A stretch of DNA of 64,000 nt from an uncultured Ruminiclostridium sp. (GCA_944386545.1 CALXBK010000003.1:41436-105435), one strand, 5' to 3'; numbered from the stretch's first letter, positions 9,943-61,059 are shown. The notes: generated by a model not told the origin, from the sequence alone. Made by a program: numbers and translations.

Positions 9943-10380
9943 TTATTCTTCAAATAAGCCTTCGTCTGCGCTGTAAGCTTGTTCTCCCTCATGACCGTGC
10001 AGATTTGCTCCGACCATATCCCTGCCTCTTACCAGGTACTTGTCGCGCTCTGATTTTACCGCTTCGTCAAGAATCCTTTTGACCTCTCTCGGCTTTTTTA
10101 TTGATATGAGCTTCTTTTCGGGAGTGTCGCAATCCCTTGCGGTAACGGTAATCGTGCCGCAGCCAACCATGCGCTGACCGAGAGTAAAGGTCATGGTTTT
10201 ATCGGTTATCTTGTAAAGCTCGATTTCGTCCTCCTTTATATTCAAAAAGCCTATTTTGGTATAAAGCATATTATCCGTGAGAATGTATCTTGTAAAGGAT
10301 ATGGGCAAACCGAGTATACATTTTTTGCCCGTCCAGATTACGTTTCCGTAATCTCTTTGCAGTTTTGCCATATTAGCCAT
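9943..10380 (-). CDS. PH-domain (bPH/YdbS-like) protein
   Basis: The pattern ..YILTDNMLYTKIGFLNIKEDEIELYKITD..TFTLGQRMVGCGTITV is typical of bacterial PH-domain proteins. I set the start at MANMAKL, because the upstream part of the ORF contains a GC hairpin and no SD. Confidence 0.55.
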   Translation of the reverse strand: MANMAKLQRDYGNVIWTGKKCILGLPISFTRYILTDNMLYTKIGFLNIKEDEIELYKITDKTMTFTLGQRMVGCGTITVTARDCDTPEKKLISIKKPREVKRILDEAVKSERDKYLVRGRDMVGANLHGHEGEQAYSADEGLFEE

Positions 10381-11737: not shown

Positions 11738-12787
11738 ATGCGAATAGATATAGCAACGCTGTTTCCCGATATGTGCGAGGCGGTGCTCAGCGAGAGCATA
11801 GTAGGCAGAGCCAGAGCCGCAGGGCATATTGAGGTGCAATGCACCAACATAAGGGATTATGCCAACAACAAGCACAACCGCGTGGATGACAAGCCCTACG
11901 GCGGCGGCACGGGAATGGTAATGCAGGCACAGCCGATATACGACTGCATTACGGACATAAAAAACCGCACAAATTTAAAATCACGGCTTATATATGTTTC
12001 CCCAAAGGGCAAAATATTAACGCAACAGCTTGTCAGAGAGCTTTCGCAATGCGAACAGCTCATAATACTCTGCGGCCATTACGAGGGAGTTGACGACAGG
12101 GTGCTTGAGGAGCTTTGCGCTGAGGAAATCTCGGTGGGCGACTATGTGCTGACAGGCGGCGAGCTTCCCGCGCTTATCATTGCGGACAGCGTTGCAAGGC
12201 TTGTTCCGGGCGTCCTGCCCAATTCCGACGCATACAGTCTTGACAGTCACTACAACGGACTGCTCGAGCATCCTCAGTATTCCCGTCCCGAGGTGTGGAG
12301 GGGCAGAAAAGTACCCGAGGTACTGCTCAGCGGCGACCACGACAGCGTTCTTAAATGGCAGGAACAAGCCGCGTACGAAACAACGCTCAAAAAGCGTCCG
12401 GATTTGCTGTACAACCGCCGCAAAAACGGCAAGCCTTATGCAAAATACGTCAGAGTTACCGCCTTTGACAATAATAATACCGAGCATGAATTTCTCCCGT
12501 TTGTATTATTCACTTTAAAAAGCAGAAAGCTGACAAACAAGGACAAAAAGGATATAAAACGTCTGCTCCCGCTGATAGAAAGCCTTTGCAAAAAGTCCGC
12601 AAATGAGCTTGAAAACTGTAAAATCTATTATTTAAGCGAGGCGGCAGTGCCGATATTAGAGGCATTTGCACCTATTTTTGACATTTTTTCGTCACATTGC
12701 ATAAATTATCGTATGGAATTTTGCAACAACCCCCCTGCCTGTATTTATGAGGACGAATTGTACTACGCCGTTCCAAAAAATGAATAA
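11738..12787 (+). CDS. trmD: tRNA (guanine37-N1)-methyltransferase TrmD with a C-terminal extension of about 110 aa
   Basis: The TrmD core runs from MRIDIATLFPDM through DYVLTGGELPALI to LLSGDHDSVLKWQ and RPDLL, ending near residue 235. The ORF then continues for about 110 more residues of unrelated, AT-richer sequence. Confidence 0.88.
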   Translation: MRIDIATLFPDMCEAVLSESIVGRARAAGHIEVQCTNIRDYANNKHNRVDDKPYGGGTGMVMQAQPIYDCITDIKNRTNLKSRLIYVSPKGKILTQQLVRELSQCEQLIILCGHYEGVDDRVLEELCAEEISVGDYVLTGGELPALIIADSVARLVPGVLPNSDAYSLDSHYNGLLEHPQYSRPEVWRGRKVPEVLLSGDHDSVLKWQEQAAYETTLKKRPDLLYNRRKNGKPYAKYVRVTAFDNNNTEHEFLPFVLFTLKSRKLTNKDKKDIKRLLPLIESLCKKSANELENCKIYYLSEAAVPILEAFAPIFDIFSSHCINYRMEFCNNPPACIYEDELYYAVPKNE

Positions 12788-14337: not shown

Positions 14338-14481
14338 ATTCAATAAGGGGCTTGCCCCGTCATTCAACGTGGCAAGCCGCAGCGAAGCTGCGATTCAGTT
14401 TCAGCCGGGGATTGAACCCCAACTGAAACTGAATATGGAATCCGCCGCCTTAGAGGCGGGGGACATCTTGCCTAAGTTATA
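14338..14481. repeat. 144-nt structured interspersed repeat, copy 1
   Basis: It matches 60916-61059 at 139 of 144 positions in direct orientation. It contains several nested hairpins. Its last 5 nt overlap the tsaD stop codon. Confidence 0.95.
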
Positions 14482-41223: not shown

Positions 41224-42840
41224 TTACTGGAGAAGCTGGAGAACTGCCTGAGGCTGCTGGTTAGCCTGAGCGAGCATAGCCTGAGAAGCCTGCTGGAGAA
41301 TGTTGTACTTGGTGTAGTTAATCATCTCGGTAGCCATGTCTGTATCTCTGATCTGAGATTCAGCTGCTGTGAGGTTCTCGTTGGTTGTTGTCAGGTTATT
41401 AACAGTGTACTCAAGTCTGTTCTGAAGAGCACCAAGACCTGCTCTCTGCATGGAAACGGTCTTAACCGCATCGTCTACCATTTCGATAGCTCTGTTTGCA
41501 GCGTCCTGAGTAGAAACGTCTGCATTAGCTACGCCGATGGAAGAAGAAGACATATCATCAACAGAAAGGGTTACTCTCTGGTCTTCAACGCCGTTAGCGC
41601 CAATCTGGAAGGTAAGACCCTTGCCTGTGCTGCCTACGCTCTCTTTGCCAACGCCTGCGCCGTCAGTAATTGTAACTTCTACTTCTGTGGCGGCAACATT
41701 GAAGAGAACCTTGCCGTCTGTACTGCCGTCAGGATTCTGAGTATCGGTGAGCTTAACATCATAATCATAGCCAGCTTCCTTGAGGATAGCTTCAATATCA
41801 GCCTCGGTGTACTCAACACCTGTAGCGAGAGAAAGTGTAACCTCAGCACCTGCTGTATCAGTAGCCGCCGTTGTAACAGTAACACCCTCCTTACCTGCTG
41901 CAACGTTTGCATTAACGGTAATCTTAGAAGGCATCTTTGTAGAAACTGCTGTACCGTAAGTATTAGCTGTGAAAGTGATAGTATCAGAAGAACCGATTCC
42001 TGCACTTGTGCCGTTACCAACAATAGTAGCGAGAGAAGCTGTACCCGTTGCTCTTAAACCTGCAACTGTAGCACCTGTATCAGCAGTATCCGCAGTTACA
42101 ACACCGTTAGCAAGAGTAAGGGTGATTTCAGCGGGAGCGTTTGTAGCTGCCTTAACCTGTGTAGCATTCTCAATAAGAGTGTCAATCTGCTTCTGAGTAT
42201 AGGTTTCGCCTGCTGCGAGGTTAAGAGTAAGCTCTTTACCTTCATCATCCCAGATAGCGTTTTCGCCGCCCTTGCCTGATGCGTCTGTTGCTATCAAAAC
42301 TTTAACACCAACAACATTAGAAGTAAGAATGGAGCCCTTGAGAGCATCATCAGTTGTGCTAACTATACCGAACTTAGCGCCGAACTCATTGTTAGCGCCG
42401 CCGGTACCGAGAGAACCGTCGAGCAGCTTCATGCCGTTGTACTCGGTAGAAGAAGCAATTCTGTCGATTTCGCTCTTAAGAGCGTCAACCTCGAGCTGGA
42501 TAGCCTCACGGTCTGTTTCATCCTGGTATGTACCGTTAGCGGACTGAACTGCAAGCTCTCTCATTCTCTGGAGAATTGCGTGAGTTTCGTTCAAACCACC
42601 TTCAGCGGTCTGGATAAGGGAGATACCGTCGTTAGCATTCTTTGTAGCCTGAGAAAGACCACGGATCTGTGAACGCATCTTCTCGGAGATAGCAAGACCT
42701 GCGGCGTTGTCGCCTGCACGGTTGATCTGATAACCGGAAGACAGCTTTTCGGTAGCCTTCTTGGTACCGGAAACGTTCATCACCATCTTGTTGTTCGCAT
42801 TGATTGCGTTGAGGTTGTGTTGTACTACTAAACCTGCCAT
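41224..42840 (-). CDS. fliC: Flagellin (538 aa, large Thr/Ala/Gly-rich central variable domain)
   Basis: Conserved N-terminus (MAGLVVQHNLNAINANNKM..SSGYQINRAGDNAAGLAISEKMR) and C-terminus (..LQNRLEYTVNNL..DTDMATEM..ILQQASQAMLAQANQ). I set the start at MAGLVV after AAGGAGGAAAATACA. Confidence 0.95.
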   Translation of the reverse strand: MAGLVVQHNLNAINANNKMVMNVSGTKKATEKLSSGYQINRAGDNAAGLAISEKMRSQIRGLSQATKNANDGISLIQTAEGGLNETHAILQRMRELAVQSANGTYQDETDREAIQLEVDALKSEIDRIASSTEYNGMKLLDGSLGTGGANNEFGAKFGIVSTTDDALKGSILTSNVVGVKVLIATDASGKGGENAIWDDEGKELTLNLAAGETYTQKQIDTLIENATQVKAATNAPAEITLTLANGVVTADTADTGATVAGLRATGTASLATIVGNGTSAGIGSSDTITFTANTYGTAVSTKMPSKITVNANVAAGKEGVTVTTAATDTAGAEVTLSLATGVEYTEADIEAILKEAGYDYDVKLTDTQNPDGSTDGKVLFNVAATEVEVTITDGAGVGKESVGSTGKGLTFQIGANGVEDQRVTLSVDDMSSSSIGVANADVSTQDAANRAIEMVDDAVKTVSMQRAGLGALQNRLEYTVNNLTTTNENLTAAESQIRDTDMATEMINYTKYNILQQASQAMLAQANQQPQAVLQLLQ

Positions 42841-43010
42841 TGTATTTTCCTCCTTGAATATTCCTCCGAAATCCTTTCCGAAGGGTTGTACCCTTGTTAG
42901 GGATTTGTGTTGTGCCGGCTCCGTATTGCGCATTACAGAGCCGAGTGGTGTTCGTTTTGCAAAACACTCACGGCTTGCGCCGTAAAAGGCTTCTTGCCTT
43001 TACATAAGTT

Positions 43011-43037
43011 ATATCGGCACTCCCCCAAAAAACTTTA
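43011..43037 (-). promoter_or_regulatory. Sigma-D (sigma-28) promoter of the flagellin gene
   Basis: On the minus strand TAAA-15 nt-GCCGATAT is an exact match to the Bacillus-type sigma-D consensus. Confidence 0.8.
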
Positions 43038-43276
43038 GTAAAAAAATCAAAATTGTATATTTTTGCTGTAATAGGGTGCGCTTTTTTGTAGGTTTATACA
43101 ACAAACGCATTACTTTGTTACATTAACTGCCGTTAAATTTGGATTTCTGCGGAAAAACGGGAAGGAAAACGGCTAAAAACAGTCATATCCGCATTGCTTT
43201 ATACTATCTTAATATAAGGGGAGTTTTCGGCGCTTGAAATCCGTAACTTTAAAAAAAGGTAATTTTGCGGGAAATA

Positions 43277-43310
43277 TTTTTGCAAGTTTCATTTAATTAA
43301 CTTGCAAAAA
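43277..43310. promoter_or_regulatory. Perfect 12-bp inverted repeat (TTTTTGCAAGTT-10 nt-AACTTGCAAAAA) abutting the -35 of the glutamate synthase promoter
   Basis: Read directly from the sequence. It ends 4 nt before TTGACA. No transcription unit converges on it that it would need to terminate, so I call it a candidate operator. Confidence 0.45.
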
Positions 43311-43314
43311 TCTA

Positions 43315-43343
43315 TTGACAATTCGCTTAACCTATGGTATAAT
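43315..43343 (+). promoter_or_regulatory. Sigma-A promoter of the split glutamate synthase operon
   Basis: TTGACA-17 nt-TATAAT matches the consensus perfectly. A leader of about 205 nt follows. Confidence 0.7.
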
Positions 43344-43556
43344 ACACGGTGTAGTCAGTCAGACTACAGGCAATTCACGAAACAGGACCGTTTCAGATGA
43401 CCGTTTTACTGAATGTTTTAAAAACTTGGGTGCAGATTTTTACTTTAAATTACAGCCGAAAGGCTTGTAGCAAAACGGAGCTGTTGCCTGCATTTTTGTC
43501 TTTTGGGGACAAATGCGGGCAGGTCAAAAACTAATTTACCGAACAGGAGTGAGCTT

Positions 43557-44654
43557 ATGCTGGAAAAAGAAGGTCAGGTAAGAATACCTGCCGGATGTGC
43601 CATTTCGGGCTTTATCAGCAGGGACGGCAACCGAATATGCGGCGACAAAATCGTAAAATCCATCTCGTATATGCACGACAGATCCAACGGTCTGGGCGGC
43701 GGCTTTGCAGGCTACGGCATATATCCCGAATACAAGGAGCAGTACGCCTTCCACATTTTCTATGATTCAAACGAATCAAGAGTAGAAACCGAGAGATTTT
43801 TGGACAGGCACTTTGATGTGGTCAACCTTTCAAGAATACCCACAAGAAAGCATCCGAACATTACACACGAGCCGCTTATCTGGAGATACTTCGTCACTCC
43901 TCTCCCCACAAAGCTCGCGGAAAGCCAGCTTGACGAAAGAGAGTTTGCAGCGCAGTGCGTTATCAACATAAATGACAGAATTAAAGGCTCTTATGTCTTT
44001 TCAAGCGGAAAGAACATGGGCGTATTCAAAGCGGTCGGCTATCCCGAGGACGTCGGTGAGTTCTACCGTCTGGAGGAATATGCGGGCTATGCATGGACGG
44101 CTCACGGCAGATACCCCACAAACACACCGGGCTGGTGGGGCGGCGCACACCCGTTTGCTCTGCTTGATTACACAATAGTTCACAACGGAGAGATTTCCTC
44201 CTATGACGCGAACAGAAGATACATAGAAATGTTCGGCTACAAGTGCAATCTGCTCACCGATACCGAGGTTATCACCTACATCATAGATTACCTCAACAGA
44301 AAACTCAATATAGGCCTTGAGGATATTGCAAAAATTATCGCCGCACCGTTCTGGAGCGAGATAGAATCCGGCAGGTACAGCAACGAGGAAAGAGAAAAGC
44401 TGAAATATTTCAGAAATGTTTTCTCAAGCTTGCTTATCACAGGTCCTTTCTCCATAATACTCGGCTTTGAGGGAGGACTTATGGCGCTTAACGACAGACT
44501 TAAGCTGCGCTCGATGGTTGCCGCCGAAAAGGACGACATGGTTTACCTTGCGAGTGAGGAATGTGCGATAAGGGCAATCTGCCCCGAGCTTGACAGAATA
44601 TGGTCGCCCAGAGGCGGCGAGCCGGTAATCGTCAAGCTTAACGAGAAGAAGTAA
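43557..44654 (+). CDS. Class-II glutamine amidotransferase subunit of split (archaeal-type) glutamate synthase
   Basis: It is GltB-domain-1-like, with an N-terminal nucleophile context ..PAGCAISGF and ..HGRYPTNT... I set the start at the ATG after CAGGAG. Confidence 0.8.
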   Translation: MLEKEGQVRIPAGCAISGFISRDGNRICGDKIVKSISYMHDRSNGLGGGFAGYGIYPEYKEQYAFHIFYDSNESRVETERFLDRHFDVVNLSRIPTRKHPNITHEPLIWRYFVTPLPTKLAESQLDEREFAAQCVININDRIKGSYVFSSGKNMGVFKAVGYPEDVGEFYRLEEYAGYAWTAHGRYPTNTPGWWGGAHPFALLDYTIVHNGEISSYDANRRYIEMFGYKCNLLTDTEVITYIIDYLNRKLNIGLEDIAKIIAAPFWSEIESGRYSNEEREKLKYFRNVFSSLLITGPFSIILGFEGGLMALNDRLKLRSMVAAEKDDMVYLASEECAIRAICPELDRIWSPRGGEPVIVKLNEKK

Positions 44655-57084: not shown

Positions 57085-57188
57085 TTACAACCGTTTTTGT
57101 ACAGCAAAGCCAAACCGTGCCCCGAAAAGCACAGTTTACTTTGAGTCAAAGCGGCTGTACATCTTCCTCGTCCAAGGCACATAACCGG

Positions 57189-57304
57189 AAAATACGGGGG
57201 TATTCTGACTTATGAGCGCTGCTCAATCACAGTAATGACGGTTGTTACGGATTTTCACCGTATTCCCTGTTACCTACCGGGCATAGCCTTTCGAGCCGTA
57301 TTTT
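57189..57304 (-). promoter_or_regulatory. Cobalamin (B12) riboswitch aptamer, compact form
   Basis: On the minus strand the P1 stem is AAATACGG...CCGTATTT. The conserved core AGGGAAUACGGUGAAAAUCCGUA, ..ACUGU.. and the B12 box AAGUCAGAAUACC are all present. Confidence 0.85.
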
Positions 57305-57324
57305 CTGATATTCAGTTTCTTTAG

Positions 57325-60915: not shown

Positions 60916-61059
60916 ATTCAATAAGGGGCTTGCCCCGTCATTCAACGTGGCAAGCCGCAGCGAAGCTGCGATTCAGTTTAAGCTGGGAATTGAACCCCAA
61001 CCGAAACTGAATATGGAACCCGCCGCCTTAGAGGCGGGGGACATCTTGCCTAAGTTATA
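60916..61059. repeat. 144-nt structured interspersed repeat, copy 2
   Basis: It matches copy 1 at 139 of 144 positions in the same orientation. It starts 13 nt after the GH2 stop, upstream of the terminator hairpins at about 61066-61090 and 61158-61183. Confidence 0.95.

Follow-up and report, generated by a model that had tools for sequence, protein, structure and literature searches.

A 144-nt sequence occurs twice in the stretch of DNA analysed here (the window; 64,000 nt, contig C3:41436-105435 of its genome), at 14338-14481 and at 60916-61059, and the locus raises the question of what kind of element this is and how it came to lie in both places. The original prediction described the two copies as each wedged between convergent genes, and it favored a DNA-level interspersed element of the MITE/REP/BIME type over a sense-specific sRNA. 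The pair itself is as described: the copies are in direct orientation, differ at 5 positions in an ungapped alignment over 144 nt and lie in unrelated contexts, with the similarity breaking off abruptly at either end. They are also strongly structured, each strand of the repeat folding better than shuffled sequences (z = -6.7 and -7.4).

Copy number and boundaries of the repeat

The BLAST search for copy number that the original prediction had proposed was run against the whole genome (G000; 1.99 Mb in 56 contigs). Hits of 100 nt or more numbered 78, were spread over 40 contigs and were for the most part 93-100% identical; about 30 short units, hereafter solos, were found besides. With several internal-deletion forms added, the total comes to ~110 copies, of which 78 are full or near-full, and the repeat occupies ~0.7% of the 2-Mb genome. 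It is a real, high-copy, non-coding mobile element. Most individual copies have 0-9 differences from the consensus, with two matching it completely and eleven departing from it once. A simple segmental duplication, the outcome that would have shown itself as only two copies with extended flanking homology, is excluded by the 78 copies and their unrelated flanks.

Alignment of 67 full copies with 40-nt flanks delimited a conserved block of 143 nt, TTCAAT...GTTATA (14339-14481 and 60917-61059 in the window); the base that precedes the block is not conserved among the 67 copies. Flank profiles of these copies and 31 solos showed AT-rich, unconserved surroundings with neither a target-site duplication nor terminal inverted repeats, and TTATA after every copy, full or solo. 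These profiles bear on a classical MITE spread by a DDE transposase, for example through the IS1-like element of this genome. In support of such an origin, an IS1-like transposase ORF lies at several contig ends, and module B (described below) has a weak terminal inverted repeat, AACgtGGCAAG / CTTGCCtaaGTT. However, target-site duplications are absent, the 5' flank is unconserved, and the apparent inverted repeat is the H2 stem, which covaries between subfamilies. A classical MITE, which is defined by terminal inverted repeats and target-site duplication, was therefore rejected, and we regard DDE-driven spread, together with segmental duplication, as extremely improbable. Apart from the repeat, this IS1-like ORF (184 aa; C1:162807-163361, C40:187-741 and contig ends of C43 and C13) was the one mobile element observed in several copies in the assembly.

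All 69 placed copies are intergenic: 20 lie in convergent, 13 in divergent and 36 in tandem gaps, the last group comprising 25 antisense and 11 sense copies. Some copies are thus wedged between convergent genes, as the original prediction had it, but these are only 20 of the 69, and the convergent setting is incidental. The flanks of the repeat were also not more terminator-like than random intergenic points, which argues against terminator targeting. Conspecific contigs from short-read metagenomes (L191, L192) start and end inside repeat copies. The repeat is a main cause of assembly breaks in such contigs, and recognizing it helps the assembly and annotation of gut Oscillospirales genomes. 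Two young copies on contig C2, at 10147-10289 (plus strand) and 11789-11931 (minus strand), with 1 and 0 differences from the consensus, respectively, are in inverted orientation on either side of a 1.5-kb segment; of the two divergent ORFs in this segment, each ends inside the TTATA end of a copy.

Modules, helices and distribution

The full element consists of a 24-nt module A and a 114-nt module B and is followed by TTATA. In copy 1, module A (TTCAAT-AAGGGGCTTGCCCC-GTCA) lies at 14339-14362 and module B (TTCAAC...CCTAAG) at 14363-14476. The element proper is 138 nt long (14339-14476), as delimited by the 67 aligned copies, the junction common to solo and full copies and the native tsaD stop codon discussed below. 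Its IS605-like 'top' strand is the minus strand of the window, on which copy 1 reads CTTAGGCAAG...CCCCTTATTGAA. Copy 2 (60917-61054, likewise minus) lies 13 nt past the stop of a plus-strand gene of 1149 aa and is flanked by TATAA at 61055-61059 on the minus strand.

At the ~30 solo sites module A stands alone before TTATA and module B is missing, so that the 29-nt solo unit, TTCAATAAGGGGCTTGCCCCGTCA-TTATA, joins the first 24 nt of the element directly to the last 5 nt. Module B without module A was found in one copy (C20:1393-1512). The combinations seen are A-TTATA, B-TTATA and A-B-TTATA, never A-TTATA-B-TTATA, and several copies with internal deletions retain both ends. Unusual arrangements were also noted. 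A 50-nt palindromic mini-variant at C11:165-214 is made up of module A, the first 12 nt of module B and an inverted module-A start (TTCAATAAGGGGCTTGTCCCGTCATTCAACGTGGCAAGCCCCTTATTGAA), and a copy at C8:477-637 carries a 17-nt AT-rich insertion (GGGTATTTTTTAAAATA) in the interval between H4 and H5. In the type III family of a second species of the genus (G147, L050:~1115-1150), a palindromic solo (TTAAAGTGCAGCTTGTTTAAGCTGCGCTTTAA) directly adjoins the TTATA end of a full copy.

Four helices, H2 to H5, were recognized within module B. In the folds, the 5' arm of H2 (GGCAAG, 14371-14376) pairs with the 3' arm (CTTGCC, 14467-14472) and has an alternative partner in the CTTGCC of the 5' hairpin; H2 is predicted to close a four-way junction formed by H2-H5. 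H3 is a short hairpin, CGCAGC-GAA-GCTGCG (14378-14392), also from the folds, and H4 is an 18-bp hairpin with the conserved loop motif GGATTnnA (14393-14434) that shows compensatory changes in subfamily cores. H5 (14441-14462, minus strand) reads CCCCCGCC-TCTAA-GGCGGCGGA with a bulged C and is a subterminal imperfect palindrome of the IS605 type (IPL-like). It is invariant across subfamilies, and directly 5' of its foot stands the predicted guide tetranucleotide (GL), ATGT, at 14463-14466 on the minus strand. In diverged copies, H3 and H4 are swapped for other hairpins in the same places. None of 200 shuffles was as stable as the repeat on either strand. Variation in the stems within the genome consists mainly of single stem-breaking changes, with G-T mismatches about as frequent as A-C mismatches and few compensatory changes, which indicates that individual copies are decaying neutrally.

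A whole-unit search of forty relatives gave weak matches in one only. The copy from that relative has the same four helices, with different sequences in H2, H3 and H4, and it leaves unchanged the H5 hairpin and its neighbours, a 25-mer (CCGCCGCCTTAGAGGCGGGGGACAT). When 401 genomes of the order were scanned with this 25-mer, allowing at most 2 mismatches, 63 copies were found in the present genome, 59 in the second species of the genus (G147), 11 in a member of another family (G242) and 1-2 in each of three further genomes of the same order; all remaining genomes of the 401 had 0 copies. The exact 25-mer is present in at least 97 stretches of species-representative genomes. Among the matches listed, the uncultured hosts belong to Oscillospiraceae, Ruminococcus and Clostridia and come from the gut of goat, deer, rabbit, chicken, mouse and human; the isolates are Guopingia tenuis NSJ-63 and Acetivibrio sp. 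MSJd-27. Related families, with the conserved module and the four-way junction, are found in many Oscillospirales genomes.

The subfamilies differ in their 5' modules and have a core in common, in which an H2 arm, H3, H4 (loop GGATTnnA), (A)TGGAAC, H5, ACAT, the other H2 arm, 2-6 nt and GTTATA follow one another. Per-sequence folds revealed at least nine distinct complementary pairs of H2 arms among the subfamilies, and an alignment of 15 subfamily cores revealed seven H4 pairs with compensatory changes. RNAalifold on a MAFFT alignment of the cores recovered H4 and H5 only, because sequence-based alignment misplaces H2 and H3; the covariation of these two helices is read from the per-sequence folds.

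The Rfam scan suggested in the original prediction gave no gathering-score hit for the repeat, only chance-level hits up to E 10. A blastn search of phage and plasmid collections gave no match, the exact repeat sequences were not found in the literature, and a keyword search there gave nothing relevant. Rfam, phage and plasmid records and the searchable literature thus gave no prior description of the repeat. With ~110 copies in both gene orientations, neutral decay and no Rfam match, the repeat behaves as the DNA-level interspersed element that had been proposed, and not as a sense-specific sRNA. Elsewhere in the window, a cobalamin riboswitch (Rfam RF00174, 46.7 bits) lies at 57178-57316 on the minus strand, upstream of an operon.

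Left end, guide and target site

The genome has one Y1 transposase gene, its sole PF01797 hit, located in a single-copy IS605 (tnpA and tnpB) on contig C13. The left end of this IS605 reads TTTAA-CTTCTTGCAGCAAAAAGT, followed by the hairpin CCCCTACC TCTAA GGTGGGGG. The minus strand of the repeat reads TATAA, CTTAGGCAAGATGT and then the hairpin CCCCCGCC-TCTAA-GGCGGCGGG. In a local alignment of the two, 24 of 30 nt are identical, with a score of 30 against 14.5 +/- 2.1 for shuffles, none of 500 of which scored as high; the plus strand of the repeat gave no match to the IS605 left end in the same alignment.

An IS605 with an 85% identical TnpA was found in six different insertion contexts and has clear ends. 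Its left end is TTTAA, CTGAAYTCGGCAAGAAGT and the hairpin CTCCCACC TCTAA GGTGGTGAG; its right end is GGGAAG, the hairpin CCCCCACC TCTAT AGGTGGGGG and a terminal AGGATGTCAC. Three more members of the TnpA clade have the same left-end layout. In these four further IS605s, TTTAA is followed by 18 nt ending in (GCA/GTA)AGAAGT and then by a hairpin with a C-rich first arm, TCTAA or TCAAA in the loop and a G-rich second arm that is bulged at the same position as in the repeat. One clade member has a hairpin stem (CCCCCGCC...GGCGGTGGG) that is almost the repeat's own. The outer stem H2 of the repeat corresponds to a CGGCAA...TTGCCG stem around the IS605 hairpin, and the GGCAAGA motif is likewise present, with the outer stem, in IS605 left ends. 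Together, the 24/30 alignment and the layout common to the clade identify the conserved module of the repeat as an IS605-type left end, and this comparison shows its homology with IS200/IS605 insertion sequences at that end.

The likeness extends to detail. A subterminal hairpin with a bulged base is found in IS608/IS605 of Helicobacter pylori and in the IS605 clade (L207-L213, L195, L217, L219 and the C13 element of this genome), as it is in the repeat. Part of the clade also has the lead-in GGCAAGA(A/T)GT and the TCTAA loop of the repeat: the full GGCAAGAAGT lead-in is found in the P0053-type and L195 elements, the L195 loop being TCAAA, and the remaining three clade elements read GCAAAAAGT, GCAAGAAGT or GTAAGAAGT at this position. 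Unlike IS608/IS605, the repeat has neither tnpA nor tnpB and measures 138 nt instead of ~1.8 kb, and its cut-to-hairpin spacing is ~14 nt, compared with 18-19 nt.

In IS608, the cleavage sites are recognized through base pairing with the four bases 5' of each hairpin and not by the protein (PMC3201880). The pairs are C1:G2, C2:G1 and C4:G4, with C3 an unpaired A, and the left site lies 19 nt 5' of its hairpin and the right site 10 nt 3' (PMC3201880). The autonomous IS605s obey this rule at both ends. On the left, the site TTAA lies 18 nt 5' of the hairpin and pairs with the guide AAGT (T:A, T:A, A:T); on the right, the site TCAC lies 10 nt 3' of the hairpin and pairs with the guide GAAG (T:A, C:G, C:G). 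At the left end of the repeat, the site is ATAA, 14 nt 5' of the hairpin, and ATGT pairs with this flanking ATAA at all three rule positions (A:T, T:A, A:T). The guide departs from that of the autonomous elements at one base (G2, A to T) and the target at one base as well (C1, T to A), the one change matching the other; ATGT/ATAA, set beside AAGT/TTAA, is the compensatory switch that the IS608 rule predicts. IS608/IS605 and the repeat have in common a 4-nt guide 5' of the hairpin foot, putative in the repeat, with pairing to the site of cleavage or the target (PMC3201880), as well as insertion 3' of the target. The family would be a natural example of guide-directed retargeting, which until now has been shown by engineering IS608.

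The 5-nt overlap of copy 1 with the tsaD stop codon, recorded in the original prediction, is real: on the minus strand tsaD ends ...CTG CAT ACA CTA TAA, and the next base is the start of the repeat. The host pentanucleotide TATAA (14477-14481, minus strand) thus consists of the end of the last Leu codon (CTA) and the TAA stop. Nearly all of the closest tsaD homologues from other species, at 75-82% identity, have a length of 335 aa, with 100% query coverage and the same end residue, and two of them at the DNA level read ...CTG CAT ATG CTT TGA and ...CTG CAT ATG CTG TAA, with no repeat after the stop. Since tsaD orthologues end at the same residue, the stop codon at copy 1 is native and TATAA predates the insertion. 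As judged from these gene ends, copy 1 inserted exactly 3' of a TATAA that belongs to the host and not to the element.

Because TATAA contains TAA, stop codons are frequently touched or overlapped by copies; at 14 of the 69 placed copies, an opposite-strand gene runs 5 or 10 nt into the TTATA end. Insertion 3' of TATAA on the sense strand of most genes leads to repeated landing on or just inside stop codons. The A-B-TTATA nesting also agrees with insertion and excision at the same junction 3' of TATAA. A search of other assemblies by way of the flanking proteins revealed neither an empty site nor an excision junction, and a 40-mer scan of JGI metagenome contigs gave no empty site. The conspecific metagenome contigs found via the flanking proteins were 100% identical, had the same insertions and broke inside the repeat; loci of other species were too diverged for an empty-site comparison.

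IS200/IS605 elements excise from and integrate into the lagging-strand template (PMC5027513). We called strands from GC skew in 20-kb intervals with an absolute skew of at least 0.03; 81% of ORFs were co-oriented with positive skew. The IS605-like (minus) strand of the repeat was on the G-rich strand, the lagging-strand template, in 49 of 61 copies (p = 2e-6), and when the local gene majority was used in place of skew, 33 of 44 copies lay the same way. The bias held in convergent gaps (14:4) and in divergent gaps (7:1). Its persistence in gaps whose flanking genes provide no directional cue means that orientation is tied to replication and not to transcription. Short loci of other species leaned weakly in the same direction (41:25; G147 11:7, others 30:18), which was not significant. 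A lagging-strand-template bias is thus common to the IS200/IS605 family (PMC5027513) and the repeat.

This bias also weighs on the reading that the repeats are a family of structured small RNAs or UTR elements, whose function lies in an RNA fold (four-way junction, T-loop-like hairpin) and whose copies grew in number by an unrelated process. In its favor, both strands fold very stably, and the subfamilies keep a four-helix architecture in which H4 shows compensatory changes and the arms of H2 and H3 differ yet stay complementary; many copies also lie within likely 3' or 5' UTRs. However, orientation tracks replication instead of transcription, copies are both sense and antisense to their neighbours, and stem-breaking changes accumulate without strand asymmetry. 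Moreover, Rfam gives no match, and the invariant parts are the ones that match a DNA transposase site. We consider an RNA function as the basis of the family very unlikely.

Right end, transposase and related elements

On the minus strand of the repeat, we found no right-end hairpin resembling the left one, whereas in the autonomous relatives, and in known IS200/IS605 elements as well, the right-end hairpin resembles the left. The ...ATGTCAC right terminus of the IS605 clade is also absent. In the repeat family of this genome the right end is GGGGCAAGCCCC followed by a terminal TTATTGAA, and other subfamilies have different hairpins; across subfamilies, a short subfamily-specific hairpin is followed by 7-10 nt ending in TTGAA, TTTAA or TTAAA. 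The A hairpin, H1b, H3 and H4 were each tried as the right-end palindrome, and none fits consistently across subfamilies. Likewise, no nearby tetranucleotide pairs consistently as a right-end guide under the IS608 rule.

The repeat is probably a non-autonomous IS200/IS605 derivative (PATE-like) that was spread as single-stranded DNA by a Y1 HUH transposase (TnpA) acting in trans, and peel-and-paste single-strand transposition of an IS605-derived miniature element is the most likely route. The active strand would be the minus strand of the window, and the element would start right after the host TATAA. About 14 nt inside would lie the IS605-type transposase-binding hairpin with the guide ATGT before it, and pairing of ATGT with the target ATAA would position the cut. 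The rest of the element would fold as the four-way junction (H2-H5), and its terminus would be a short unrelated hairpin, then TTATTGAA. An IS605-clade TnpA would be the mover and would also process the right end, although no right-end hairpin is recognizable there. Solos would be the remnants of a precise excision of module B, from the junction after TATAA to the one after the internal TTGAA (...GTTGAA).

The family poses the puzzle of how an end without a transposase hairpin is processed. A possible answer, which we hold to be doubtful, is an undescribed single-strand transposon architecture with one TnpA-binding hairpin, in which the H2-closed four-way DNA junction unites the cuts after TATAA and TTGAA, the target is changed through the guide bases and the A/B forms arise as products. 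If this is true, the junction would let a Y1 transposase process both ends without a right-end hairpin, and the single guide-base change would be a natural reprogramming of target choice. The modular A/B forms, with alternative internal and terminal right-end sites, would then be products of the same chemistry.

A tnpA of the matching clade is present in the genome. Its ORF of 133 aa is intact and has the motif DHVRILF, whereas the HUH motif in six TnpA homologues is H-V-H (DHVHILF), with one Y-V-H, so that the motif is mutated here. The accompanying tnpB has an in-frame TAA after residue 239. This single-copy IS605, outside the window at C13:~42400-44130 and with a right end ...AGTATGTCAC, looks like a relic. 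Among ~19 repeat-bearing genomes, the matching TnpA clade (at least 84% identity) is found only in this one and in G428, whose TnpA reads DYVHILF; the other Y1 genes of repeat-bearing genomes are of the IS200 type and ~23% identical. The high-copy genome G147 has no Y1 gene, and pooling all PF01797 clades showed no excess of Y1 genes in genomes with the repeat. The co-occurrence test is weak, since the majority of these assemblies are MAGs, from which insertion sequences are often lost.

A mover other than TnpA has to be considered at this point. The repeat could be a REP/BIME-like or other hairpin-directed element moved by a RAYT, an integron-like or Xer-type tyrosine recombinase or a phage or plasmid enzyme, its IS605 likeness being a captured or convergent module. 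The 29-nt solo hairpins do resemble REPs, the right end is not IS605-like, and the cognate TnpA is missing from most repeat-bearing assemblies. For an integron-like enzyme there is a further point of likeness. Integron attC sites have the inverse core RYYYAAC and the core GTTRRRY; the start of module B, ATTCAAC, fits the former, and the end of module B gives G followed by TT. GTTATA nevertheless mismatches GTTRRRY and the copies are dispersed and not arrayed, so that the attC reading, with only its RYYYAAC fit, was rejected. A REP/RAYT system, in which REPs of 20-40 nt flank a RAYT gene and are themselves the mobile or amplified unit, was rejected too, since there is no RAYT and the only PF01797 hit is the IS605 tnpA with tnpB alongside. 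No recombinase, nor any other gene family, recurs beside the copies in this genome or, in other genomes, at 90 loci. By contrast, two specific predictions of the IS200/IS605 reading were both borne out, namely the compensatory fit of guide and target and the bias in replication strand. A non-TnpA mover is therefore unlikely in our judgment. Two other sources were set aside on domain searches: a retroelement-derived repeat (retron- or group II-like), there being no reverse transcriptase (PF00078) hit in G000, G147 or G242, and an IS110-derived element, there being no DEDD transposase (PF01548) hit in G000 or G242.

As an IS200/IS605 derivative, the repeat belongs to a known kind, the non-autonomous elements derived from this family. 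The PATEs (palindrome-associated transposable elements) of haloarchaea and the cyanobacterial 'Nezha' are IS200-IS605-derived MITEs. Like them, the repeat is short and gene-less, lacks inverted repeats and target duplication, has an end from an IS200/IS605 element with a fixed short sequence 5' of it and is presumably mobilized by TnpA in trans. Unlike them, it is recognizably IS605-like at its left end only, the right-end hairpin being unrelated and subfamily-specific; its interior is the conserved four-way junction and it occurs in modular A, B and A+B forms. Its guide and target are also switched, ATGT/ATAA compared with AAGT/TTAA in the autonomous relatives. The repeat departs from this known kind in its one transposase-type hairpin, the conserved four-way junction, the switched guide and target and the modular A/B forms.

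The repeat resembles REPs and BIMEs in its dispersed, intergenic short hairpin units (the solos) and in the related enzyme class (Y1 HUH), but it has no RAYT gene and no GTAG-type REP head, and its solos belong to a larger element, as fragments or as partners. Thus the assignment to the MITE/REP/BIME type stands in so far as the repeat is a DNA-level mobile element; it lacks the inverted repeats and target duplication of classical MITEs and has no RAYT, and its left end is of the IS200/IS605 type. With the BOX, RUP, Correia and bcr1-type repeats it has in common a high copy number, intergenic location, modularity, strong folding and frequent co-transcription with neighbours. Those repeats are DDE-type MITEs with inverted repeats and target duplications, or their mechanism is not known, whereas for the present repeat a specific transposition chemistry is indicated.

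Other elements of the wider family were met in these searches. An IS605 of the same TnpA clade (88% identity) on a 33.9-kb Logan contig (L217, ERR14021357) lies between a T4-type portal gene and a thyX-like gene and hence probably inside a phage genome, a setting that offers a possible route of horizontal transposase spread. Another genome of the same genus (G017; L054, L058-L063) has seven copies of a 731-nt IS200 with tnpA only. Each copy stands directly after a terminator-like hairpin and T-run, and the end hairpins, CCACCGCTTGAAGCGGTGG and CCACGCGTTCAACGCGTGG, are unrelated to the repeat.
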